A DNA stretch of 64,000 nt from Cyanophyceae cyanobacterium (GTDB lineage: Bacteria > Cyanobacteriota > Cyanobacteriia > Cyanobacteriales > JBHJGN01), in contig JBHJGN010000077.1 of NCBI GenBank assembly GCA_050331735.1, positions 5,062 to 69,061 of the forward strand, in the 5' to 3' direction. The notes beneath the pieces are model-generated. The model had not been told where the DNA came from. It did no database searches and saw nothing but the letters and a program-made list of their open reading frames with translations. Below, in pieces: positions 2,907 to 26,358 of the stretch. The number at the start of each line of letters is the position of its first letter. The first letter of the stretch is position 1. A program made the translations under genes and the position numbers.

Positions 2907-5570
2907 CTAGTTGCTAGTTGCTAGATGGTCAACAGTCTGGCGAGCTTGACTTTCCTCTCCGGAGCGTTCCGCCACTGGAAGATAGGGGCGGCTCCGTCCT
3001 TCCCGTTTGACTCGTTGATAGGACTGCCACAGCGACCAAGGACCAGCCAAATTCCCGGTTATTTCTAGCCCCACCAGTGAGAGAGGATAGGTGCTCTGCC
3101 CCAGCAAGCGGTTTTTGATTTGCTCGGCATGGTAGATGGGCAACGCGACTAAAATCTGCACCAGTCCACGCCAGTCACCATCCAGAAGCCAAGTTGTTAG
3201 GTTATAGGAAACGTGTCCTTTGCTGTAGCCGTAGATCTGGCGGCGGAGGGATTCAAGTTGGCGACGGTGTTTGTGCCACACATAGGCCCGTGGCTCATAG
3301 ATAAGCGTGTAGCCAGCTTTGAGCACCTTGTAAAACAAATAGGTATCTTCGCCAACCCCAGACGGCATCCCCGGACCGAGGGTTTCTTCCATCAAACCAA
3401 TCTGGGGATGATGCAGCATACTAGCCCGAAAAGCGGCGTTAGCGGTCGCTCCTAAGCTCCAGGTTGGGATTGCTATTCGGGGGGAAGATTCGAGCCACTC
3501 TCCGTCTACTTCTTTCGGGTCAAAGCCACGCCCCAAACCGCCGTAGGTCTCGAAGAACTGCTGGGGAGAGGTTTCCAACTCAATCGGCAAGACGTGTCCG
3601 GTGACTACCATGACGTCTGGTCTGGCAAAGGGAGCGAGTAACTTTTCTAGCCAGTCGGGAGGCACCGTTACATCATCGTCAGTGGCAACGACAATATCGC
3701 CTGTACTGGCCACAAAGCCAGCATTTCGGGCATAGGCGAGTCCCTGACGTTCTTCGCTCACTAGCTTGACACCGGGAAATTCGGCGACCACGGGTGGCGT
3801 TAAGCCGGAGGCTGGATGGTTATCCACCACAATAATTTCCACCGGGCGAGAGGTGATTTGGGCCATCAGACAGCGCAGACAGTTCCGCAAATCGTCCGGT
3901 CGATCGAAGGTTGCTAAGTTAATCGTGATAGCAACGGGGTCAGGCAGTCGAGACGATGTCGCTGCTTGAGACTGAACGGAGAGTCGGTTTTGCAGCGCAG
4001 TCTGAGCCTGGGACCAACAAACAGCGGTGCTGAGGTCGCTATCCCGATAGAGTAATTGTGGGGCTACTGCGTTGACAAGCGCTTCCCGCAGACGGGCCGC
4101 GCTCACGGGTTGATATTGATGAACAATATCGGCACTTCCGAGAGGCTCGTCATTGCAAGTGATAAAAATTCTGACCTGGAGAGAGTCTGTTACGTCGGTT
4201 AGGGGGTGTATCGGCTGATTTAGCTCAACTCGGCGGACAGCCATCCCACTAGAACCACCTTCAGCGGGGCTTTGAGCGGAGACTGACGTGCCTGGTTCGA
4301 CCGGAGTCAGAAGACCAAAGGTTGTCGCAATGTGAGCCGCGTTGCGGCGGGCTTTGGGATAGCGTGTTAGCCCGATGAAGACACCTTTTAATTCAGCAAC
4401 GACTAAATCCCGTGGCAGTTGAGTGGGATGCTTGAGGGTGATCCACAGGCGGCGGAGATGCCAATACAGCAGCCACCACAGCCCTATTTTGACAAAGGAC
4501 AGGCGCTCCTCCCGGTAGGCTAAAGCTCCGCAGACGAAGTAAGCATACAGGCCAATCCCGTTGTTGGTAATCTGCGATCGCAGCCGAGTATACTCCCGTC
4601 GGTGGCGGTGGCGGATCACGGCCCTTGGTTCGTAAACGAGGGTATGCCCTCCTTTAAGAACTCGCAGGAACATCTCTAAATCTCCGCAGCCGTTGGTAAC
4701 GGTGCCAACATCTAGAGCCGGGTCAAAGACTCCAATCTCAGTAAAGACGCAGCGACGGTAAGCCATATTCGCCCCCGTCCCGAACTGTCCAGTCCCCAAG
4801 AGCTGCCAGGGCATCTGGCCTCGACCCACTCGATACCACTGCCGTTCAAAGCCGCGCCCAAAGCCGCCATACTTTTCAAAGAGAACCTGCGCTTCGGTTT
4901 CTAGCTCGTAGGGCACAACCAGCCCGGTGACGGCCATTACTTCAGGATTTTCGGCAAAAATCTGAGCAAGCGCCTTGACCCAGCCAGGATCGACTACGAC
5001 ATCATCATCGGTGTAGGCAATGATGTCGCCTTTAGCCTCTAGGATGGCGCGATTTCTGGCCCAGTTCAAACCCGGACGCGGTTCGCAAACGTAGCGCACT
5101 GCGGGGAAATTCGGCACCAGCTTCTTCGTAGCGTCGTTCGTTGGGGCGTTATCGACAACCAGGATGTCGAGATGCGGGTAATCTAATTGCTCTAGAGACT
5201 CCAAGCAGAGGGCCAAGTCTGAAGAGCGATCGCGAGTACAAACGGCAACGGTTACCAGCGGATAGTCCTCGGTGTATTCAGGAGGCGGAACCGTCCATAG
5301 ATTCTCCAGGCGCAGTTCTTCCGGCTTGAGTGCTGCCCCCAAACCGTTTTCCAAAAGTTGCTTAATAATGGTCCAGCTATGCTCGGCAAGAATCAGCTTT
5401 TTTAAAGTAGTGGCGAGGCAGCAACCATTCACAATGGGAGCTTTAACAGTGCCGACCGGAACGTTGTGGAGACGAACGAGACCCTGTACACCCATATATC
5501 CGTCTAGATTCTCAATCGTCACCAGCGGACGGCTCAGTTCAATATCAACAATTTTGAGCGGATAAAGCAT
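2907..5570 (-). CDS. Bifunctional glycosyltransferase with two GT2 (GT-A) modules
   Basis: 887 aa. Module 1: VTVAVCTRDRSSDL, ILVVDNAPTND, AYTDDDVVVDPGW. Module 2: AITINLATFDRPDDL, IIVVDNHPASG, VATDDDVTVPPDW. Confidence 0.8.
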   Translation of the reverse strand: MLYPLKIVDIELSRPLVTIENLDGYMGVQGLVRLHNVPVGTVKAPIVNGCCLATTLKKLILAEHSWTIIKQLLENGLGAALKPEELRLENLWTVPPPEYTEDYPLVTVAVCTRDRSSDLALCLESLEQLDYPHLDILVVDNAPTNDATKKLVPNFPAVRYVCEPRPGLNWARNRAILEAKGDIIAYTDDDVVVDPGWVKALAQIFAENPEVMAVTGLVVPYELETEAQVLFEKYGGFGRGFERQWYRVGRGQMPWQLLGTGQFGTGANMAYRRCVFTEIGVFDPALDVGTVTNGCGDLEMFLRVLKGGHTLVYEPRAVIRHRHRREYTRLRSQITNNGIGLYAYFVCGALAYREERLSFVKIGLWWLLYWHLRRLWITLKHPTQLPRDLVVAELKGVFIGLTRYPKARRNAAHIATTFGLLTPVEPGTSVSAQSPAEGGSSGMAVRRVELNQPIHPLTDVTDSLQVRIFITCNDEPLGSADIVHQYQPVSAARLREALVNAVAPQLLYRDSDLSTAVCWSQAQTALQNRLSVQSQAATSSRLPDPVAITINLATFDRPDDLRNCLRCLMAQITSRPVEIIVVDNHPASGLTPPVVAEFPGVKLVSEERQGLAYARNAGFVASTGDIVVATDDDVTVPPDWLEKLLAPFARPDVMVVTGHVLPIELETSPQQFFETYGGLGRGFDPKEVDGEWLESSPRIAIPTWSLGATANAAFRASMLHHPQIGLMEETLGPGMPSGVGEDTYLFYKVLKAGYTLIYEPRAYVWHKHRRQLESLRRQIYGYSKGHVSYNLTTWLLDGDWRGLVQILVALPIYHAEQIKNRLLGQSTYPLSLVGLEITGNLAGPWSLWQSYQRVKREGRSRPYLPVAERSGEESQARQTVDHLATSN

Positions 5571-14706: not shown

Positions 14707-14889
14707 TCATGGTAATAATTTGATGTACTCTCTTCCTCGATACTTAAGAGTAAAACCGTTTTTAAGCGTTGCATTCCTCGTCTTTCCAATCTGATAAGAG
14801 ACTCCCCGATACTTGCCATTAATCGTTTTATCGGTTGCTGAGCGGGTTAAGTTAGATTGGTAAGAAATACCGCGATAAATGAGCTGCAT
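14707..14889 (-). CDS. Small DUF4278-type protein
   Basis: Start moved to ATG 14889, preceded by AAGGAGAAAAAG. MQLIYRGISYQ...KYRGVSYQ...KYRGREY has the repeated YRG-x-SY pattern of cyanobacterial DUF4278 proteins. Confidence 0.65.
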   Translation of the reverse strand: MQLIYRGISYQSNLTRSATDKTINGKYRGVSYQIGKTRNATLKNGFTLKYRGREYIKLLP

Positions 14890-14983
14890 CTTTTTCTCCT
14901 TAAATTTTCGTGTTGTTTTTTTAATGGCTACCAAGCGAACTAACTGATGCACTTATAGCTAAAACGATGGCAGGTTAAAGAGT

Positions 14984-17014
14984 TCATCTAAAGGTTGTCG
15001 GAACAGAAACAGTAGACACCCGATTTTGAGCAAAATGTTCTAATAACATGCGGTGATAAAATACATAGCTACCACCCACTTTTTTCATCAACAGTCGTTC
15101 TGAGGCGTAGTCAAGAAAGTGAGCTAGATTCCTAGGAATTAAACCCTTAGCCCATAATATAAGTCGTAGGTTGACGTGTTGAATGCAGGCCATTCCGCCT
15201 CCAAAAAGTAGCCCTAAAATCAGTCCCCAACTGATTACAGAAGTGATTGACTTTAATCCTTTAGGAAATAAACTAATCGGAAAAGGAAACAAAATGATTG
15301 GGATCAAAATTAGCCAACTAGCTAATGCGACGATCGCGGCATTCGTGACCGATTTCCGAATACCTTGGTTAGGGATAGTTTTTGTCTCTATTTCTGAGCC
15401 TCTTAGCCCACGGATTAATCCGATAATTAGTCCTAAAATTACTCCTAAAAATAGTCCAAATACTATTATTGTTAAGCCATTGCTTGGCTCTTTCCAAGTC
15501 AGGTAACACCACACTACACTAATCGGGGACAAAATTCGACTCCAGCTTAGTCCATCCCTTAAACCATTAAGCAGATCTTTTCGCGTTTTTTTCCAAGGCC
15601 ACGTCAAAGTTTCAAAGGTTTTTATTTCTGCTTTATCGCTTCCAAACCATAACAAAACAAGTCCCCATGTTACTCCGTTGATCGCTAATACTTTAAAAAG
15701 GTTAATTTTTTCGTTATGCAAGTCTAAAACATAGCCTAGTAACAAGATTAATAGAACAACCAGCATCCCCATCAGTATACTTCCCACTCGATAAAGTCTT
15801 CTTTGGAGATTAGGCTCCAACCAATAGGGCTGCATTCTCTCAATTAAAAAGACAGATTGAGCTCCCTGAGACATCCGCTGTGCCAGCCAAGTTAGCCAGT
15901 ATATTGACCTATCTTTCTGGTATTGCTGAACTCCTTTACGCTTGAACATCCGATCAATATAAGTATCGAACAGGTGATGACGGCGTTCTTCACTTGAGCA
16001 AAACTGCTGTAATAGATCTTCTACTGACCAATCTTGATAAGCAACACTCATAATACTGAGAATTAGAGGAGTTTGGGCAAAACGTTCTAATTCTCGATCT
16101 TGCTGTAATAGCGTTCTTAAGCCAGCGAGGGAATCACCTGCTTCTGCTAAAAAACGATCTACTTGTTTTTTTGAAAGAGGTTTAATACAGATAGCACTGC
16201 TAAGTTGCAAACGCGCTGTCAGTGCCTCATAATCCTCGACTCGGCTACAAATCACCATCTCAGTAATATTATGAGTTGTGATAAATTGATTTAAAGCTCT
16301 AACGCAAGCGTTGCGCTTTCCAGCTTGTACTTCATCTAATCCATCAAGAAATAGAATTAGCTGTTCCTGTTCAATCCAAGGTTCGCTTAGCGTTTTGGGA
16401 ACTTGATATTTATCTTTTAGTTCTTCAATTAGCCATTTTTCTATGGGTTGCTGCTTGTATTCCCAAGAAGATAAGTTAAACACTACGGGGATAGGCTTCG
16501 TTAAATCTTTTTCGGTTTGAGCGATCGCTTTTTTGGCTAGCTGTAATAAAGCAATCGTTTTTCCTGAACCAGGCTCTCCTAAAATTAATAGGGTTTTACC
16601 TTGTCCGGTTTGATTCAAAATATCTGTTGATTTAAGTTGGTCAAAAGACTTATCCAAGTCTATTGCTATATCTTCAACGCCTGTAAAAGGTCTAATTACC
16701 GCACTTGAATTTTTTTCCCAGTCGAGGTTAATGACATTATTTCTATAGAGAGAAGAGTTGAGAAAACCCTCGATCCAAGACTCTTTAACTTTGCGCAATA
16801 AGGTGATTCGCTGTCTATATTCGTGTTGAGTTAATACTTGGCGCACTACTGGAGTTTGACCTAACCAGTCCAGATCATTCGTGACGCGATCGCGATATTG
16901 CTCGCGACTGAGAATGGTAATGTTGTGATTGTGAACAGTGTTATTGTCACCAACCGCAAAGCCTTTTGCTGAAGCTTCAAACCTTTGATTGTATTTAGCA
17001 CTACGTTCAACCAT
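14984..17014 (-). CDS. NACHT-family STAND NTPase (NLR-like) with N-terminal short signalling motif and about 6 transmembrane helices
   Basis: Start moved to ATG 17014 (MVERSAKYN) with GGAG 8 nt upstream. Walker A LILGEPGSGKT, Walker B LILFLDGLDE. Hydrophobic helices span ORF residues ~417-620. C-terminal YVFYHRMLLEHFAQ resembles the NACHT-associated YxFxHxxxQEYFAA helix. No TPR/WD40/LRR repeats. Confidence 0.8.
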   Translation of the reverse strand: MVERSAKYNQRFEASAKGFAVGDNNTVHNHNITILSREQYRDRVTNDLDWLGQTPVVRQVLTQHEYRQRITLLRKVKESWIEGFLNSSLYRNNVINLDWEKNSSAVIRPFTGVEDIAIDLDKSFDQLKSTDILNQTGQGKTLLILGEPGSGKTIALLQLAKKAIAQTEKDLTKPIPVVFNLSSWEYKQQPIEKWLIEELKDKYQVPKTLSEPWIEQEQLILFLDGLDEVQAGKRNACVRALNQFITTHNITEMVICSRVEDYEALTARLQLSSAICIKPLSKKQVDRFLAEAGDSLAGLRTLLQQDRELERFAQTPLILSIMSVAYQDWSVEDLLQQFCSSEERRHHLFDTYIDRMFKRKGVQQYQKDRSIYWLTWLAQRMSQGAQSVFLIERMQPYWLEPNLQRRLYRVGSILMGMLVVLLILLLGYVLDLHNEKINLFKVLAINGVTWGLVLLWFGSDKAEIKTFETLTWPWKKTRKDLLNGLRDGLSWSRILSPISVVWCYLTWKEPSNGLTIIVFGLFLGVILGLIIGLIRGLRGSEIETKTIPNQGIRKSVTNAAIVALASWLILIPIILFPFPISLFPKGLKSITSVISWGLILGLLFGGGMACIQHVNLRLILWAKGLIPRNLAHFLDYASERLLMKKVGGSYVFYHRMLLEHFAQNRVSTVSVPTTFR

Positions 17015-17030
17015 TTTAAGTCTCCAGCAG

Positions 17031-17402
17031 CTAAGAGCCAAATGTATTTGTTTGAGTGTTGCGATCGCCGAATTGACCCCCTTTAACTTCCCCTTGAAAC
17101 AGCATGTTATATTTACCTGCTGCTGTTTCTTTAGGATCTAACTGTTTTAGTATTTCCTGAGCTTTTTCAACAATTTTCTCGTCTCGATCGGCACCAACCT
17201 CAGTTAATTTCTTTTTGAGTGGAGCTTCATAGGTGTCAGGGTCTTTTTCGTATTCTTCTAAAACCATTTCTGCTTTTGGTTCGCCATCAAATTTATGCTT
17301 AATTAAAGTTTTTAAGCCTTGATAAGCATCTGGAGCAACATCTCTAGCCGCTTTTACTGCTCCAGCAACCAGTGCAGCAAGAATTAAAGAAATTGGTTCC
17401 AT
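17031..17402 (-). CDS. Small Bell-like protein with N-terminal hydrophobic helix and C-terminal amyloid-signalling-type motif
   Basis: 123 aa with a GAGGA RBS. The N-terminus MEPISLILAALVAGAVKAARDVAPDAYQGLKTL is followed by a charged helical middle. The last ~26 aa (GKYNMLFQGEVKGGQFGDRNTQTNTF) match the N-terminus of the next gene. Confidence 0.6.
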   Translation of the reverse strand: MEPISLILAALVAGAVKAARDVAPDAYQGLKTLIKHKFDGEPKAEMVLEEYEKDPDTYEAPLKKKLTEVGADRDEKIVEKAQEILKQLDPKETAAGKYNMLFQGEVKGGQFGDRNTQTNTFGS

Positions 17403-17647: not shown

Positions 17648-20600
17648 TTAAACAAAGATCGATTTATAAATGCGGTTCTGAACTTTTAAAGTTCCCTGTT
17701 GCTTAACGACTAGCCCCGATAACAGCAGTTCTCTTTCCTCGGGGCTATTATCTGAAACTATTGCACCTCGGTGTAAAATTTGTCGATAGAGTTCTAGTAG
17801 TCGGACGGACTGTTTGCTCTTGAGCAGGCGATCGCGGATCGTTCTCAAATGCTCGGGTTCATCCTGATATTCCCAATTCTCGACGATCTTGGTTCGCACC
17901 AAGTTTTCGAGCCACTCGGCTTCTTGGTTAGCAGGGATTGAAGAGGAAGCATCGCGGATAAGTTTGCAGAGCTTTTGGGTTAAAAAGGGCTGTCCGTTCG
18001 TCCAGGCAAACACTTCTTTGAGCAGCGTTTGTGGATTATTCACTTTGTCCATTAATCCTTGCAGCAACGGTTGCGCTTCATGCTGTTTAAAGCCCTCTAG
18101 TTGAATCGCCTGACCGATGTTAAAGGGGGTTCTTTGATAGTCGGTTGCTAAATCGCTCGGAGTAGCGACACCAAAAAAAGCAAAGGTTAGGCGTCGATAC
18201 TCTGGATCGATACTGCGCTGATTGTAGCAGGAGCGTATCAGCGCCAAAAAGTCATTAACGGGAAAATTCAGGCTTAAGAGGCTATCAAGTTCATCGATAA
18301 AAATAACTAGATTGGGAAGAGCATTATCTTGGCACTCGACTTCAACTAACAAAATTTCTCGAATAAACTGACTCAATTTTTGTACTGGAGAAAGATCTTC
18401 TTGCTCTCGCCACCAGGTTTTTAAATCGACTGTCCTCAGCAAACCAAAGCCATACCATAGCTCTACGGCTAATCCCTTATACCATTGTTCGGGCGTAACG
18501 CTTTCGCTGCCAATCCGAGTCAGATCGATCGCTCCGCAGCTAAACCCTTCGTGCTGGAGGTGACGCATCATGCGCACCATCAAGCTTGACTTGCCCATCT
18601 GCCGAGGATTGAGAACATGACAAAACTCTCCTCGTTTTAACGCTTTATAAAGACAGCGATCCGCCGAGCGTACCACATAAGTCGGGGCATCCATCGGCAA
18701 ACTTCCCCCCACTTGATAGTCAAACTCAGAGGATTGTTCGGCACTTCTGAGCAGTTCATTTTCAAACATGAGTTCTGCTTGAGTCGCTTGGAGAATTTCC
18801 AAGGTTTGCGATAGCTCTTGAGTGCGTTCTGAAACTCGTTGTTCGAGGGTGCGATTGTAGCCTGCTAGCTGTTTGTAGAGACGGGCATTTTCGATAGAGA
18901 TAGCGGCTTGAGCGGAAAGAATCTTTAAAACTTCTACGCGATCGCTAGTAAAGGCACCGCTGGTTAAATTATTTTCTAAATAGAGAATCCCGATCAGTTG
19001 ATCTTGATGAAGCAAAGGAGTACAAAGAATCGATTTGGGGTGAGTCGCCACTATGTAAGGATCGCCGCTAAACTGTTTTGCCTCAGTCGCGTTGTTTAGC
19101 ACAACGTTTTTGTGGGTGCGGGCAACATAGTGAACGATGGCAACGGATAGAATTGGTGCTTGGCAATCGTCTACAGAGTCAATGGCAATTGATTGCAGAA
19201 CAGCCACCTCATCAGCCTCTACTGCTCCTCCCGCTTCAATTGTTAAGTGATCCTCGTTTGCTAGAATCAGAAAGCTTTTTTGAGCGCCAGCATTCTCAAT
19301 GACAGTTTTCATCAAATTTTTGAGCAATTGGCTCAGCGCGATCTCCCGCGAAATTGTCTGCGAAGCTTTGATAACGCTGGCTACATCTAATCCTGCCTGG
19401 GTCAAGGTTGAAGATAAGCGGTTGGTCGATTCTGAGGCTAAATGTGGGTATCGTTGCTCTAGGTGCTTCACCTTGGCGTGTGCGCCCCATCTTTGGTAGG
19501 CATAATGAGCATCCTGTATGTAGTGGCGAGCAACATGATTCTCCTGAGCTAGGTAAAATTGACCAGCCAGTTCGCAGGCAAGAGCTTCTTCATTAAGATA
19601 GTTGTTTTCCTGAGCCAGCATAATAGCCTGGTCATACTGCTCTCGGGCTTCTTGAACTTGCCCCAACACTCGGCAACGTTCTGCCTCGACTAAATGAAGC
19701 TTGTGTAAAAAATTCATGGGAGCACTTCGCGCCCACGTTCGTATCTGCTTTTGATTACTGGCTACTTTTGCTAAAATTTGTTTCTGTTCAACGGCTAAAG
19801 ACTGAGGGTAGACCGCCAGTCGTGCTAAAGAGTCATAAAAGTAGAAGAGGGGACAAAGCAGCGTTCCTGTAGAGGTGTCTACATAGGGTTCAGCACAAAC
19901 AGCATTTTCAAACGCTTCCTGATACTGATTAAACAGGTAGCAGAGAATTAGTTTGTTGAGATACAGATAGTAAATAGTTGAGCGTTGATTTCTTTGCACA
20001 TAGAGAGGAAGTTCCTGTTCTTCGTTATAAACCTCCCCGACTAGACGGTAGGGTTCGTCTTCTCCAATCAGGTTCAGAACAATTTGATGGATCAGAGTGT
20101 CGTTTCTGAGCTGATTAATGGTACTGCTATAGGTAGTGATTTCCTGCTCTAATTCAGGTAGGGGACGAGCAGCGCTGAAATAGGAAAGATAACAATAGAT
20201 TTGGATAGATAGAGCGGCATGTTCAAGATCTCCCGTGGCTAAACCACTGTGATAGGCAGCTAATAAGGCGCTAAACGTCTGGCTAATGTGGAATTTCCCA
20301 GGAATTGTAAAATAGGTGGTCACAAAGAGGGTCATCGCTTTGAGTTCTTTCGCGTTTAACCGCTCTAACAGACGCAAAGCAAGCTGACCGAATTGGTAGC
20401 CAAGCTCAAAGTTTGCGGCTCTACAGAGAATCAATCCGTAATTCGCATAGGCATGGGTATGAGCAACAGCGTTGCCATAGTGAAGAGCCAAATTAATTTG
20501 GGCAAAGATAATGAGCGGCAACAGGTGAGGACGGGCTATATAGGCGGCAGGGCAGAGAGTGAGTAGGATACGGGTAGCGGCAATTTTGGTCGGATCGCTC

Positions 20601-23269
20601 ATCAAAGGCGCATCCAGTAAGTCTTGAGGCTGTTTTTGTGCCAAGGATTGTTGCAGCGTCTCGAACCCCAAGCTCACGTCAGATTCAGAAGGCTGCGTCG
20701 GTAAATTCACGCCGAGGATTTTCAGCACCGAGATGCCAAGCTGGAGGGCTTCGGTAAATTTTTTCTGGGCTTTGAGCGCTTGGATTTCGATTTCGTGAAC
20801 TTTCACCTGCTCTAAGTCAGATTGAGCCTGTTGCCGTACCGCCTGAACTAACTGCTCCATCCGCCTAAAATCGTGGTTGAGATAGGCTGCCTCTGCGGCG
20901 GCGGTGTGTAGAGCTAGCGATAGGTCGTATTGCTGCCAGTTTGCTTCAAGTAGTTCTAAGCCGACGGTAAAGTAGGTGAAGGCAGATTGATGGGCGGCTG
21001 ATGCTTTCGCGATCGCTCCTGCCTGGAGATTTAAGCGGGCGAGTTGCTCTCGCTCTGGACGGTGGGAGAGCAGTGACCGTCCCTGGTTGAGCTGATTAAC
21101 AATCGTAAAGGGGTCCGATTCTAGGGGGGTGTGTTTGAGCAACCGTTGACCAATCTGCCAATGCACAGCCTGGGTTTCTGCCTGGGGAATGAGGCCATAG
21201 ACCACCTGCTGGATGCGATCGTGGGCAAACTTGTATCCGGCTGATTTTGATAAACCGTTTACCTCCAGCGACCTTAGCGTGTAGCTGTCGTTCAGGGGTA
21301 GAATATATCCCTCGGCGATCGCTGCCTCTAAATCTACTGCTACTTCCCGAGCCGTTTTTTCAGAGATAATCGCTAATCGGTCTAAAGTAAATCGGTTCCC
21401 CAGGCAGGCGGCTAATTTCAACGCGGCCTGAGTTGGTGGCGTTAGCTGTTTGACCTTCTCCGCCATCAATTGGGCGACATTATCCGCAATCGGCTGGGTT
21501 TGAATCTGCTTCAAATCCCACCGCCATTGCCCTCGTTCGTCATCAAATTCGATCAGCGATCGCTCGTGTAGAGATTTCAAAAACTCGCTGACAAAAAAAG
21601 GATTGCCCCCCGTTTTTGCCTGTAACATCGTTGCCAGCGGACTGGCGGTGGTGGAGTCAACCCGAAAAGTATCGCTGAGCAGTTGGCGAGTATGGGTTTG
21701 GGTTAGGGGCAACAGCGAAATTTGATTAACGGTGATAGAAGACTCGATTTCCCTTAAAGTGAGCAGGAGCGAACTCTCGCTTACTTCGTTGTCTCGATAG
21801 GCTCCAATCAGCAGCAAGTATTGGCTATTTCCAGCCGTGAATAACCGTTGAATAATTTCAAGCGTGGCTCGATCTGCCCACTGCAAATCGTCTAAGAAGA
21901 TGACGAGGGGATGTTCCGGTTGAGTAAAAACTTTAACAAAATCTTGCCATACCCGATGAAAACGATTTTGCGCCTCTGTCGGCGCAAGGTTTGGGAGGGC
22001 TGCTTGGGAACCGATAATCAATTCTAAGTCGGGCAGAACATCGAGCATCACCTGTCCATTTGCCCCCAAAGCCACCAACAGTTTTTCCCGCCATTCTGCA
22101 ATCTTGGGTTTACTTTCAGTCAGTAGCTGTTGGATTAATGACTGAAACGCTTGAATTAGGGGAGCATAGGGAATGTTGCGCTGTAGCCGCTCAGATTTCC
22201 CAGAGATAAAGTAGCCTCGCTGACGGGTCAGGGGCTGATACACCTCCTGCACCAGAGCGGATTTACCCACCCCTGAATGTCCGCAAATCACCATCATTTC
22301 GCTAGCGCCTTGGCTCACGCGATCGCAGGCAGCTAATAAGCGAGCCAACTCTGCTTCTCTTCCGTAGAGCTTTGGGGAAATTTGAAACCGATCGGAAATA
22401 TCCACTTGACCTAATGGAAAGGAAGCAATTTGCCCTTGGGTTTGCCACTGATGCCAACAGTGTTCCAAATCTGCCTTGAGTCCAAAAGCCGATTGATAGC
22501 GATCTTCGGCGTTTTTGGCCATCAGCTTGAGCACAATGTCTGAAATTGCCGGGGGAAGGTTGGCATTATGTTGATGGGGAGGAAGCGGAGATTTGGCAAT
22601 ATGGCCGTGAATTAATTCCAGAACATCCTCTGTAGGAAAGGGCAACCGACCAGTGAGCAGTTCATAAAAGGTTACCCCGAGAGAGTAAAAATCCGTTCGC
22701 TCATCGATTGCCCGATTCATCCGCCCCGTCTGCTCTGGGGAAATATACGTTAATGTTCCCCTTAATACCTTTGGATGACGAGTTGAGTTTTTCGGGGTCA
22801 GTAGGAGCGAGCTACCGAAGTCGATCAGTTTGACCTGCTCAGTCGCGGGACTCCAAACAATATTGGACGGGTTGATATCGTTGTGGACAACGTGCTGTTG
22901 ATGCACTTGGGCAAGAATACGAGCAAGTTGAATGGCAAGCGGGAGAAACTCCGTGACAGAGAGAGGGCGCTCTTCAATCACCCGATCGAGAGCTTGCCCC
23001 CCAAAATCCTCTAAAACCAAGAGCCAGCGGTCCTGCTCATTCTCTAAACCATAGACTTGTACTACCCCTGGCAAGTTAAGTTGATTGAGTTTTTTGGTGG
23101 TTTCATACTCCTGTCTAAACCAAGCAATTTCCTCGGGTGTCGGGTAAGGCTGTTTGAGAAATTTGAGAATGACGGGTTGACAATCTGCTAATCGTCGTCC
23201 GCGATAGACTTGCGAGCTAGCGCTTTCGTGAAGCTGTTCGATAATTTGGTAGTCTAAAACACAAATCAC
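17648..23269 (-). CDS. Multidomain signalling NTPase: Ser/Thr protein kinase + AAA_16-type STAND ATPase + TPR-like helical array + GAF + coiled coil + C-terminal AAA-like (AAA_35-type) NTPase
   Basis: GTG start with GGAG 6 nt upstream. Kinase motifs [18 protein letters not shown] (aa ~6-270). P-loop GHSGVGKS with [12 protein letters not shown]. Long helical repeat region. GAF ([19 protein letters not shown]...ILYLENN...ISIENARLY). Coiled coil. Last 359 aa: [34 protein letters not shown]. Confidence 0.8.
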
Positions 23270-23287: not shown

Positions 23288-24817
23288 CTAGAACCAGGTC
23301 AGATGTCTAGGCTGCCGTTGTTGCCGTTCAGCAGATCGCTTTTGCAGTGCTTCTACCAAGGCTTTCTCACTTGTGTCTTCTGGGGAGGGACCGTACAAAA
23401 TCCCGACAACCTTTTTCATCTTCTCCACGTCGTAGTGATGTTCGCCATGTTCGTGTTCGTGACTAGGACCAGCCCAAGGGGAATCGGTGTGAACCCACTG
23501 CCCTTTCTCGAACCAATCTACGCCTTGAATAACCGTCTTCACCACCTCACCGGGATGAGCCGCTTCATGGGCGCTGAACCAGTCATTGATGCGGTCATCC
23601 ACCCAGCCGTGCAGCCGCCAGAACACCGGGTTGACGTGAGAGGAATAGAACTCGCCCAAAAAATCGTATTCGGGGCGATCCCAAAAGTCACGGATGTCGT
23701 TGTCTTCCCGTCCAGATGGCAGTACGCCGAGCGCGGGATGATAGGGGGCTGATGTCCAACGCATGTGCATATCGTTATGAACCGAGTACTCAAGCAGTGC
23801 ACCAAGTTCTCCGAGCGAGAGGGTACTGAGGTACTGTTTGTTCTTAAACTCCCGGTCCCACCACGCCATCCGCGACCAGTAGTGTCCGTCTGTCTTTAAT
23901 AGAGCAATGCGGCGGTTGGTGATTTCGTCGGTCGGATCGATCCAGGCTGGAGGAATAGCAAATCCGTCTGGGTTGCCGGGGGTGGGGAGAACTGGCGGGT
24001 CTTCCTCGTAGTCTGGTTCGGCTCCCACAGAACCGGGACGGGGAATCGTCGGCCATCCGGCGATCGGCTCCTGTCCAGCTTCCTTGATCTTGCGATTCAC
24101 TTCTTGAATCATCTGTCGGTGCATGAAGAGAAAGTCCTCACCGGAGCCATTGCGAATTAGGGGAGCACCTGTCGCATCGACTGACGGACGTTCTTCTTCG
24201 CCGCCTGGTTGCCATCCAAGTTCTCGAATTGCCTGTTTTTTCTCTTCGTTGATCATCGGATTAAGCCACAATCCGCGCACACTGTGCCAAACGGTATGGT
24301 GGAGCCGATGGTGTTTCGATGCCAGCATCTTGAGAACTTCCTGTGGAAGCGGAATGACCGTTCTTGGCTCAGGGAAATCCCGTTGAACAGCAACGAAAGA
24401 GGCTACTACGCCAGCCGGACTATCCTCGCCATGCTCCACAGTTCGGATTACCGTTCCTACCAACGCAGGTCGCTGATTCTTTCCGTTCGGCCACTCAGGG
24501 ACAAAATAGGCGACGTAATCGTACACCCACCCCTGGGCAAATGTTCCCAACACGCCAGTCCCTTGAAATCTTAGGGAAAATGGGTTGCCTGTCTGGAGCG
24601 AGCCTTGGAGTGAGAGTCGGGCGTCATTCATCTTCGGCGGGTCACTCCTAAAGGCAAGCTGTCCGCGAATCGTCCCAGGCTCGGCAGCCGCCTCAAATAC
24701 CATCTCACCTTCCCCAAAGATGAGGTTTTTGAGCTTGTCACAATCATCGCTGACTGGCTCAGTAATGTTGTTATAGCTGCGGTAGGTCCAAGCCCCGCTC
24801 AGAAATTCGTTGGTCAT
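23288..24817 (-). CDS. Divergent tyrosinase-like (type-3 copper-like) protein with N-terminal beta-rich domain
   Basis: FLFMHRQMIQEV resembles FLPWHRxxLxxFE. HNDMHMRW resembles HNxVHxWxGG. NPVFWRLHGWVDDRI resembles DPxFWLHHAxVDRLW. There is also a His cluster, HHRLHHTVWH. The canonical CuA His at -9 is missing and the CuB spacing is longer than usual. No signal peptide. Confidence 0.4.
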   Translation of the reverse strand: MTNEFLSGAWTYRSYNNITEPVSDDCDKLKNLIFGEGEMVFEAAAEPGTIRGQLAFRSDPPKMNDARLSLQGSLQTGNPFSLRFQGTGVLGTFAQGWVYDYVAYFVPEWPNGKNQRPALVGTVIRTVEHGEDSPAGVVASFVAVQRDFPEPRTVIPLPQEVLKMLASKHHRLHHTVWHSVRGLWLNPMINEEKKQAIRELGWQPGGEEERPSVDATGAPLIRNGSGEDFLFMHRQMIQEVNRKIKEAGQEPIAGWPTIPRPGSVGAEPDYEEDPPVLPTPGNPDGFAIPPAWIDPTDEITNRRIALLKTDGHYWSRMAWWDREFKNKQYLSTLSLGELGALLEYSVHNDMHMRWTSAPYHPALGVLPSGREDNDIRDFWDRPEYDFLGEFYSSHVNPVFWRLHGWVDDRINDWFSAHEAAHPGEVVKTVIQGVDWFEKGQWVHTDSPWAGPSHEHEHGEHHYDVEKMKKVVGILYGPSPEDTSEKALVEALQKRSAERQQRQPRHLTWF

Positions 24818-24978: not shown

Positions 24979-26358
24979 CTAGCTCTCAAAAACCGATGTG
25001 ATGGACAGATGTTGTCCCTTGGTAAAATACTGCCGATACAGTTCGCACCCGGCGATCGCGCGATTGCCGCAAAGTTTAATTAACCCCATACTGCATAGCT
25101 TGTGGGTTTGAATCGGATCTAAGGAAACAGGTTCAGCGGCATTTAGAACCTGATGAAGAGCCTGCATCAACTCAGGCTGTTGTTCTAGGGTGGCCCAATG
25201 ACGCTGCAGGTGATGAGCATATATTCCTGTCGCCGTGAACGCCGTTTTTAGCAGTTGCGATAGCGTTATTTCTCCCCGATTCAGATGATAGAGTGCCAGA
25301 TTCACCAGTGCAGGATGACCCCCGACTAGAGACATCAGTTGCTGGGCTTCTTTGTCATCCGTCCAGTCCAGTCCGTAACGTTGGGCTAGGAGCTGTACTT
25401 CCTCTGGAGTAAAATCCTCTAACTGAATGGGTAGCCCGACATTGAATGGGGATTGGTTACAGTCGAGAGGAACGTAAATTTCTGTTGAGTGAACCACAAT
25501 CAGACGCAGCTTTCGCCAAATCGGTAATCTTTTTGTTTCTTCGTACCACGACCGCAACAGCGGTAAAAAATCCTGCGCCACCTGCGGATGCTCGAAAATC
25601 TGGTTCACTTCATCTAGCGCCAAGACGAGGGGAGCGTCGATTGACTCTAATAAATAGTCTCGAAAGTAAAGGGTGCAGCTCAGATTACTGCCCAAATCTT
25701 TGTCCCAATACTCGTCTAGCATCGGTTTAAGCTCAAGCTGGCGAGAGATACTCGTACACAGCCAGCGCAAAAATTGATTCAAATTACCCAAAATTGATTG
25801 CTCGACTTGCTCTAGGTTCAGGCTGACGGTATGGTATCCCAGGTGAGAGGCGTAGTTAAGGCTCCTCAGCAGCAGTGAGGTTTTCCCCATTTCTCTCGGA
25901 GCCTTAATCCGAATTAACGCTCCTGATTTTCTCACTTCTCGCTCGACTTGTTCCTTAACAGAAGAGCGTTCGAGGTAAAAGGGAGAGTCAAGCGGAACTG
26001 AGCCGCTGGGGTAGCAAGGTGACGGATCCTGGTTGACATGGGGGAACGCTTCCGCCAGAGGTGACCTTAAAGGTCTTGTTTGAGGGTCGGGTCTGGTGGT
26101 GACGTAAGACTCCAGTAATCCCCGACAGTTCTTTTTGGTCACGCGCTGACCGACGACCTTAGAAAGTCGCTGATACAGCTCTGGGGCAGCAACGTTGGTA
26201 AAGTAGCCAGGACTATAGCCTGCCTCGATTGCAATCTGGTTGTAGGTTTTATACTGCCAAATACCCTGTAGGATCAGCATTTCTGCGGGATTGAGGGGTC
26301 GATTTTGGCTCTCAATGAGCTGGCGGTCAACAATTTTACAGAGATTATCTAAATTCAT
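24979..26358 (-). CDS. AAA-like (AAA_35-type) NTPase with N-terminal HTH-like module of the type labelled vWA-MoxR-associated N-terminal domain
   Basis: The N-terminus LNPAEMLILQGIWQYKTYNQIAIEAGYSPGYFTNVAAPELYQRLSKVVGQRVTKKNCRGLLE fits a cyanobacterial N-terminal module I recall. Then YPSGSVPLDSPFYLER, Walker A REMGKTSLL and Walker B LVLALDEVN. This part is paralogous to the C-terminal 359 aa of the 1873-aa protein. Confidence 0.7.
   Translation of the reverse strand: MNLDNLCKIVDRQLIESQNRPLNPAEMLILQGIWQYKTYNQIAIEAGYSPGYFTNVAAPELYQRLSKVVGQRVTKKNCRGLLESYVTTRPDPQTRPLRSPLAEAFPHVNQDPSPCYPSGSVPLDSPFYLERSSVKEQVEREVRKSGALIRIKAPREMGKTSLLLRSLNYASHLGYHTVSLNLEQVEQSILGNLNQFLRWLCTSISRQLELKPMLDEYWDKDLGSNLSCTLYFRDYLLESIDAPLVLALDEVNQIFEHPQVAQDFLPLLRSWYEETKRLPIWRKLRLIVVHSTEIYVPLDCNQSPFNVGLPIQLEDFTPEEVQLLAQRYGLDWTDDKEAQQLMSLVGGHPALVNLALYHLNRGEITLSQLLKTAFTATGIYAHHLQRHWATLEQQPELMQALHQVLNAAEPVSLDPIQTHKLCSMGLIKLCGNRAIAGCELYRQYFTKGQHLSITSVFES

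Follow-up and report, generated by a model that had tools for sequence, protein, structure and literature searches.

Background

Bacterial Bell domains have been described as bundles of five helices, of which the N-terminal one is hydrophobic, with an acidic residue at position 2 or 3 of the protein (Dyrka et al. 2020). They form pairs with NOD-like receptors (NLRs), and a short collinear spacing of the two genes is typical of the published Bell/NLR pairs (Dyrka et al. 2020, 10.1101/2020.01.06.895854). For BASS3, a class of bacterial amyloid signalling sequences (BASS), a relationship with both RHIM and the fungal PP motif has been reported (10.1101/2024.11.07.622273; Dyrka et al. 2020). In published experiments BASS3 motifs, one from Nostoc punctiforme included, formed fibrils in vitro and prions in Podospora, and NLR-side motifs converted Bell-side motifs at pair identities of 43-56%. 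In fungi HET-S is activated by templating from NWD2; in Escherichia coli the Bell-like protein Bab is activated by its neighbour via a shared amyloid motif, relocalises to the cell periphery and causes abortive infection (10.1101/2024.11.07.622273). Membrane targeting and killing of cells have been demonstrated for HET-S and for Bab. We describe here a pair of adjacent genes found in a 64,000-nucleotide stretch of a Cyanophyceae cyanobacterium (contig JBHJGN010000077.1, positions 5,062 to 69,061; hereafter the window), one encoding a small effector and the other a NACHT receptor. On the basis of sequence comparisons, structural models and analogy, the locus is quite probably a two-gene Bell/BASS3-NACHT amyloid-signalling module as defined by Dyrka et al. 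2020. An initial annotation of this DNA, made from its letters alone, had proposed that a Bell/BASS effector and an NLR are organised here for amyloid signalling, and the proposal is backed by motif statistics, by co-variation of the motifs in homologous loci, by homology of the effector to Bell proteins and by a true NACHT domain in the receptor.

A motif shared by the facing termini

The two proteins carry similar G/N/Q-rich segments at the termini that face each other across a short spacer, C-terminal in the effector and N-terminal in the receptor. Residues G96-F121 of the effector and A6-N31 of the receptor align without gaps with 11 identities over 26 positions (42%), exactly the alignment that the initial annotation had given. 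A comparison with shuffled sequences, suggested in the same annotation, places the similarity far above background: the BLOSUM62 local score between the two 40-residue termini is 56, and 20,000 shuffles of both termini gave a mean of 18.1 (standard deviation 3.7) and a maximum of 44, none of them reaching 56. When the whole effector is compared with the whole receptor, the top local alignment is the same terminal segment. The motif-coding DNA of the two genes is only 47% identical, which argues that the similarity does not stem from a recent DNA duplication.

Two profile searches single out the same termini. The first profile was built from the effector- and receptor-side motifs of 25 other loci, the window being excluded, and was run against the six-frame translation of the 64 kb; it matched the effector (E 8e-16) and the receptor (E 1e-11) only, the next match having an E value of 2. 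The second, used as a proxy for the original BASS profile hidden Markov models (HMMs), was an HMM derived exclusively from 40 published actinobacterial BASS3 Bell-side sequences. Of 1,150 six-frame segments, the effector tail came out on top (E 1.6e-7, KGGQFGDRNTQTNTFG being aligned to kGVQvGDhNTQtNtFg), followed by the N-terminus of the receptor (E 0.0038); the third segment had an E value of 0.31. Extra copies of the motif, such as would mark additional receptors or decoys, were found in the 64-kb window by neither search.

The published datasets (PMC8086366), whose README maps the internal name C03 to BASS3, hold tails of close relatives of the effector. The entry ESAAGKYNTVFQGEVKGVQVGDSNTQTNTFS (A0A1Z4HAF8_9CYAN) of the BASS3 Bell-side set is the tail of a Calothrix sp. 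NIES-2100 protein (P0034) 71% identical to the window effector, and IVSQKYQVQFEGEVKGGQVGDHNTQTNNFN, also in the BASS3 set, is the tail of a Phormidium willei protein (P0092) 64% identical to it; several Nostoc entries belong to the Bell-side set too. Because orthologue tails are found in the published set, and because the actinobacterial HMM ranks both termini at the top, the shared motif is assigned by sequence to the RHIM-like BASS3 class (Dyrka et al. 2020). This corrects the initial annotation, according to which the motif could not be placed in a named BASS family. The 42% identity of the window pair compares with the 43-56% of the published cross-seeding pairs.

Homologous pairs and co-variation of the motifs

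Relatives of the effector were sought in one genome per species. The 75 loci obtained are mostly cyanobacterial, four being from Ktedonobacteria and two from actinobacteria (Solwaraspora and an Actinomycetota metagenome-assembled genome, MAG). At each locus, and independently of any annotation, the last 38 residues of the Bell protein were compared with the six-frame translation of the flanking DNA (±4 kb), and the best match was taken. In 58 loci, spanning cyanobacteria, Ktedonobacteria and an actinomycete, this match is the N-terminus of the next open reading frame (ORF) on the same strand, 1-450 nt downstream, and 54 of these 58 ORFs feature a P-loop motif. Loci outside this group are mostly truncated contigs or visibly damaged. 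Cognate pairs have a mean score of 64 vs. 35 for non-cognate pairs, and the observed sum was reached by none of 10,000 permutations of the partners.

About nine distinct motif types were recognized, which switch on both sides together: Bell tails ending …GKYNTVFQGEVKGIQVGDRNTQ.N.F are matched by receptors beginning …SKY.STFQNEVKGAVVGEGNIIYNYFY, and likewise …DVYGVAGRNEGTVNQTF by …DVYGVAGDNRGTIIQNF, …INIGQGAKGIIGQNVTGATI by …INIGHGAKGIIGQTITNATY, …GDVKGIVGEISGGEINQ by …GDVKGIIGDIKGGVVNQ, and …KYAATSGSGNASI by …YAATSATGNATI. The class of the partner NTPase varies from locus to locus, and the motif pairing persists. The partner is an nSTAND1-WD40 protein in L010, L048 and L001 (the latter from Hyella, with an effector homologue 80% identical to that of the window), an NB-ARC-TPR protein in Ktedonobacter (L067) and, in L024, a NACHT protein of the kind with transmembrane helices (NACHT-TM). 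The examination of homologous pairs recommended in the initial annotation thus finds the shared terminal motif kept in 58 of the 75 loci, with its two sides co-varying by motif class. A conserved effector combined with interchangeable receptors and a matching motif argues, at the level of sequence, for selection on the match between the motifs itself.

Bell proteins of the cyanobacterial BASS3 family are paired most often with nSTAND1(-WD40) proteins, which Pfam nSTAND1 matches at E 1e-120. The published NLR-side sets lack the N-termini of these partners (...NIIYNYFY...), plausibly because the 2020 survey took just Pfam NACHT and NB-ARC neighbours (Dyrka et al. 2020), and the published catalogue may under-count Bell/BASS3 pairs with nSTAND1 partners.

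A few loci carry altered genes. In L009 (Nostoc sp. CHAB 5715, from position 4001 onward) an in-frame deletion joins Bell-BASS3 (...GDRNTQ) to the part of the receptor that follows the NTPase, with transmembrane (TM) and WD40 regions. The Bell tails of L022 and L033 depart from the family motif and have aberrant, probably frameshifted ends. In L078 (positions 1-564) just the last 12 or so Bell codons (...GDRNTQTNTFSS*) are left upstream of a BASS3-NACHT-TM gene, and this remnant adjoins a fragment resembling an adenylation domain.

The effector

The effector has 360 homologues at E≤1e-3; among the 120 listed, those with a named source are almost all cyanobacterial, and one (P0001), from a Cyanophyceae MAG, is identical to the window protein. 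Members of the family are 60-80% identical over the first ~94 residues, and their last ~28 residues are discrete alternative motifs. Residues 1-94 alone match published Bell-domain proteins with E values from 2e-11 to 1e-9. The AlphaFold2 (AF2) model, with a mean predicted local distance difference test score (pLDDT) of 74.8, is best over residues 1-90 (78-90) and consists of five helices (3-19, 24-38, 42-53, 55-68 and 75-94); from about residue 95 onward the tail is disordered in the monomer, and the motif has a pLDDT of 43-54. Homology and modelling both identify the effector as a Bell-domain protein. The initial annotation had suggested a Bell profile or structure as a check, and these E values, together with a five-helix model ending in a disordered tail, speak for its reading.

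Neither Pfam, nor NCBIfam, nor PADLOC gave a match above threshold to the effector. A Pfam scan of its family returned just sub-threshold matches to HetE-N, EAD10 and RHIM in some members, and nothing meaningful was found among PDB chains searched with the family profile (best E 0.2).

The hydrophobic helix which the initial annotation had seen at the start of the protein is present: MEPISLILAALVAGAVKAA has a mean hydropathy of 1.94, and AF2 predicts a helix over residues 3-19 with a pLDDT of about 84. Residues M1, P3, A10, L11 and A15 are invariant or nearly so across the family. The protein literally starts with M-E-P-I-S, and 'MEPIS' is the name under which the N-terminal region conserved in Bell, Hell, Bab and Avast2 has been described (10.1101/2024.11.07.622273). 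In the modelled bundle helix 1 is buried. The possibility that it is a secretion signal was rejected, as it carries an acidic residue at position 2, has no basic n-region, is packed in the modelled bundle and is conserved as 'MEPIS'.

The receptor

The receptor matches Pfam NACHT with an E value of 2e-10 (41.2 bits vs. a cut-off of 26.7), and its Walker A (GEPGSGKT, 146-153) and Walker B (LILFLDGLDE, 219-228) motifs are intact. The best Foldseek matches in the PDB are NOD2 (5irn), NLRC4 (8fw2) and NLRP9/NLRPs, with E values of about 1e-5. The partner is, as had been annotated, a NACHT NTPase. In the AF2 model (mean pLDDT 76.5) the first 33 residues, which include the motif, are disordered (pLDDT about 30).

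Downstream of the NTPase core the protein is predicted to hold a membrane region. Hydropathy marks five segments (412-430, 437-455, 516-534, 560-578 and 587-605), and AF2 places six long helices in the region (402-430, 439-459, 478-506, 513-537, 550-575 and 590-622). The region is kept across the receptor family, in which W472, W474, N549, G551 and the GGG at 605-607 are invariant or nearly so. It is followed by a small element modelled as a helix (630-640), a hairpin (643-646/649-652) and a second helix (655-663); here the family features a GG.Y.F.HR motif, with G647, H654 and R655 invariant or nearly invariant. We take this element to be the winged-helix His motif of NACHT proteins. Read in this way, 630-663 is part of the NACHT module and the membrane region is an insertion inside it; the number of helices being even, both flanks would lie on the same side of the membrane.

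Repeat domains (LRR, WD40 or TPR) were not found in the receptor, which falls outside the tripartite NLR architecture. Its sequence features and its model place it in the 'TM regions' class of NACHT proteins known from bacteria and not among the classical repeat-bearing NLRs. Of the NLR label given in the initial annotation, the NACHT NTPase holds; a repeat sensor is missing, and inserted membrane helices are predicted in its place.

Relatives of the receptor and exchange of their N-termini

At least 1,235 proteins belong to the receptor family at E≤1e-3 (8,000 candidates scored), and the matches with a named source are cyanobacterial. Receptors of the other Bell loci were considered as members of one family with the window receptor, and only that of L024 qualifies. 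The C-terminal tail of the L024 protein ends in a Cys-rich, zinc-ribbon-like stretch. At the position of this tail, a domain of Tll0287-like (DUF3365) type, about 244 aa long, is present in other relatives.

Most NACHT-TM relatives begin with a CHAT protease of about 210 residues (as an example, CHAT spans residues 12-160 and NACHT residues 359-499 in P0125), many others with short motifs, e.g. MT..N.VNISGGNVQGFIQENHGTVTQNF. Among the best 120 relatives, the BASS3 N-terminus was found only in the window protein and in P0122-P0124. Other G/N/Q-rich N-terminal motifs occur in P0125-P0240 (MSEASLPNNVQIFGGVKGWVHENRGVVNQN and ...GDNLQGNIQGNQGNIRDINNYF), and receptor N-termini of the NISGGNVQGFIQEN type are present in the published BASS9 set. 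In the window receptor, the BASS3 motif occupies the effector position, taken up in relatives by a fused CHAT domain. By sequence, the N-terminus of these receptors is the place of an effector or of an effector-recruiting module, filled in the family by CHAT, BASS9 or BASS3. NACHT-TM proteins accordingly make up a natural series of fused vs. amyloid-recruited effectors.

The published NLR-side sets do not include the receptor-side sequence of the window (AKYNQ…GFAVGD). The pair consists of a known effector and motif joined to a known receptor family, in a combination which those sets do not hold. A BASS9-type NACHT-TM receptor of Microcystis wesenbergii (L076, 214-2475) is likewise preceded by a Bell protein, of 137 aa, ending …ISGGTVQGLTQQNTGTINQNFS. 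A DDE transposase lies downstream at this locus, which may represent a mobile or defence context.

Gene calls and neighbourhood

The initial annotation had the NACHT protein starting 16 nt downstream of the small ORF, which agrees with ATG 17014. The ORF lister had stretched the gene to TTG 17041; the closest homologues begin MVEHSAKYNQ…, MVKYSQTF… and MSEYNQRF…, which makes ATG 17014 the likely start. Read from there, the receptor begins MVERSAKYNQRFEASAKGFAVGDNNTVHNHN; the effector ORF ends in AAGKYNMLFQGEVKGGQFGDRNTQTNTFGS*. A terminator-like site was not found between the two genes, the promoter and terminator scan being otherwise uninformative, and the genes are probably co-transcribed.

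The gene next upstream encodes a protein whose kinase part matches the PADLOC models PD-T4-6/mad6, probably as a generic kinase only. No evidence was found that links either this protein or the 459-aa AAA_35 protein to the Bell/NACHT pair. The other neighbours are ordinary or unrelated genes, among them those of a FAD monooxygenase, a GntR regulator and an OprB/SLH porin. Coordinates are collected in Table 1.

Table 1. Features of the Bell/NACHT locus and of its surroundings (positions in the window)
Feature	Position	Strand	Basis or remarks
Bell-domain effector gene, 123 aa + stop	17031..17402	-	ORF call and 360 homologues
Helix 1, aa 1-19, MEPISLILAALVAGAVKAA, 'MEPIS' motif, acidic residue at position 2	17346..17402	-	hydropathy, AF2, conservation
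Bell domain, aa 1-94, predicted five-helix bundle	17121..17402	-	homology to published Bell proteins and AF2
Effector-side BASS3 (RHIM-like) motif, aa 96-121, GKYNMLFQGEVKGGQFGDRNTQTNTF	17040..17117	-	profile matches, orthologue tails, disordered in AF2
Intergenic spacer, 16 nt	17015..17030	-	GGAG at 17022-17025, 7 nt upstream of the NACHT ATG
NACHT receptor gene, 676 aa + stop	14984..17014	-	ORF call; identical P0121 annotated 'NACHT domain-containing protein'
Receptor-side BASS3 motif, aa 6-31, AKYNQRFEASAKGFAVGDNNTVHNHN	16922..16999	-	profile matches; same N-terminus in P0122, P0123, P0124
NACHT NTPase core, aa 141-291	16142..16594	-	Pfam NACHT, motifs, Foldseek
Predicted membrane region, six long helices, aa 402-622, five strongly hydrophobic	15149..15811	-	hydropathy, AF2, conservation
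Winged-helix-like C-terminal element, aa 630-663, ending GGSYVFYHRMLLEHF	15026..15127	-	AF2, conservation
DUF4278 small protein, repeated YRG..Y	14707-14952	-	E 1.6e-12; directly downstream of the receptor gene
1,873-aa Ser/Thr kinase/AAA_16/GAF/C-terminal AAA_35 protein	17648-23269	-	245 nt upstream of the Bell gene
509-aa ORF	23288-24817	-	without Pfam match at E≤1e-5
459-aa AAA_35 protein	24979-26358	-	a little beyond the 1,873-aa protein

Mechanism and alternative explanations

A mechanism for the pair can be drawn from HET-S/NWD2, from the Podospora and in-vitro experiments on BASS3, and from Bab/Agp of E. coli. A signal would be sensed by the receptor, possibly in or at the membrane by its inserted helices, and the NACHT module would oligomerise in an NTP-dependent manner. 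The clustered N-terminal motifs of the receptor would then take up a cross-beta fold and template the same fold onto the Bell tail. The converted tail would free helix 1, which would insert into the membrane and cause cell death, be it as abortive infection or phage defence, or as regulated cell death in a colonial cyanobacterium. It is tentatively suggested, as a bolder step, that the membrane helices inside the NACHT module are themselves the sensor, and that the pair may be an alarm for perturbation of the membrane or envelope which relays through a RHIM-like amyloid to a pore-former. If true, the circuit would follow the logic of necroptosis in a prokaryote, with a trigger that arises inside the membrane.

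Several observations weigh against an amyloid-signalling module. The core tetrad of RHIM (I/V-Q-I/V-G) is imperfect on both sides, being G-Q-F-G in the effector, the family consensus of which is [AIVG]-Q-[VI]-G, and F-A-V-G in the receptor. Pfam RHIM has no match to the window effector at E≤1, and matches one of 56 family members (E 0.0054). The receptor ends ...EHFAQNRVSTVSVPTTFR (14984-15030, minus strand), 49-57 residues short of the tails of P0122-P0124. A recognisable defence island was not found among the genes neighbouring the pair, and the biological function of Bell/NLR pairs in general 'remains to be elucidated' (10.1101/2024.11.07.622273).

The motif might instead be a homotypic adaptor, in the sense of the effector-associated domains (EADs) of Kaur et al. 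2020, which would bind its partner stoichiometrically (e.g. by pairing of beta strands) and dispense with templating. EADs are small non-enzymatic domains, duplicated on adjacent genes, which recruit effectors, and EAD10 has a mixed alpha+beta composition (Kaur et al. 2020); six of the 56 effector-family members have sub-threshold matches to Pfam EAD10 (best E 0.0026), and the Gln of the RHIM tetrad is lost in the receptor-side motif. The motif, however, is a short G/N/Q-rich stretch that is disordered in the AF2 monomer of either protein, members of BASS3 form fibrils and prions and cross-seed in published work, and the identity of the window pair is about that of the cross-seeding pairs. Given the BASS3 data, an adaptor of this kind is less likely than amyloid signalling, and we regard it as unlikely.

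The shortened end of the receptor, compared with its three closest homologues, would also be expected of a decaying or inactive copy of the module, and decay is seen at related loci (L009, L022, L033, L078). Yet a C-terminal tail is missing from many members of the receptor family too, both ORFs are full length, the whole motif is intact, as are Walker A and B and every family-invariant residue examined, and the ribosome-binding site and its spacing are preserved. Loss of function at this locus seems accordingly improbable, somewhat more so than an adaptor. A chance match of low-complexity termini or a functionless remnant of DNA duplication, which the shortness and biased composition of the motifs might suggest, is ruled out by the composition-preserving shuffles, by the low DNA identity and by the pairing and coordinated class switches in the 58 loci.

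Comparison with known systems

The amyloid-signalling module proposed here is closest to the Bell/BASS3-NLR pairs (Dyrka et al. 2020, 10.1101/2020.01.06.895854, J Mol Biol 432:6005; PMC8086366). Common to both are a Bell protein of 120-140 aa whose first helix is hydrophobic and whose position 2 is acidic, a motif of ~25 residues which ends this protein and recurs at the start of an adjacent collinear STAND NTPase, the pattern (A/G)KY..(x)..KG.Q.GD.NTQTNTF and a cyanobacterial host. In contrast to those pairs, the window receptor lacks WD or TPR repeats and has membrane helices inside the NACHT module, and the tetrad of the effector is GQFG, not VQVG or VQIG. With the BASS9 pair of M. wesenbergii the locus shares the receptor family (49% identity), NACHT with inserted TM helices, a Bell gene immediately upstream and a matched terminal motif; the motif is BASS9-like (ISGG.VQG..QEN.GT..QNF) in Microcystis and BASS3 in the window. 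Receptor N-termini like MTGDNRVNISGGNVQGFIQENHGTVTQN are found in the published BASS9 set. The published description of the 'TM regions' class of bacterial NACHT proteins makes no mention of amyloid motifs or Bell partners (Kibby et al., 10.1101/2022.07.19.500537, supplementary discussion). Bab/Agp of E. coli ECOR25 differs in carrying a BASS11 motif and a Babybell domain, which is shorter (about 80 aa).

HET-S/NWD2 of Podospora anserina likewise features adjacent genes and a NACHT receptor with an N-terminal amyloid motif, and activation by templating is proposed for the window pair by analogy with it. The HeLo domain and the HRAM motif of the fungal system have no detectable sequence relation to the window proteins, and Pfam HeLo, HeLo-like and HET-s gave no match at E≤1. 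HET-S has two pseudo-repeats, the window effector a single motif; NWD2 has WD repeats, the window receptor none. HET-S/NWD2 is analogous to the window pair in organisation only. Necroptosis (RIPK1/RIPK3 to MLKL) shares with the window pair an amyloid motif of RHIM type upstream of a membrane-disrupting executioner built as a helical bundle, but in animals the proteins joined through RHIM are kinases, and phosphorylation, not templating, activates MLKL.

The locus brings no new principle, the motif class and the effector family having been published in 2020-21, and its receptor is of a less common type. Bell/NLR pairs have been proposed as the bacterial equivalents of fungal HET-S/NWD2 and, via the RHIM-like BASS3, of necroptosis signalling in animals. 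Within this frame, an intact pair, belonging to a family in which CHAT, BASS9 and BASS3 are swapped, makes a compact test bed for what the receptors sense, and for comparing amyloid relay with direct effector fusion.

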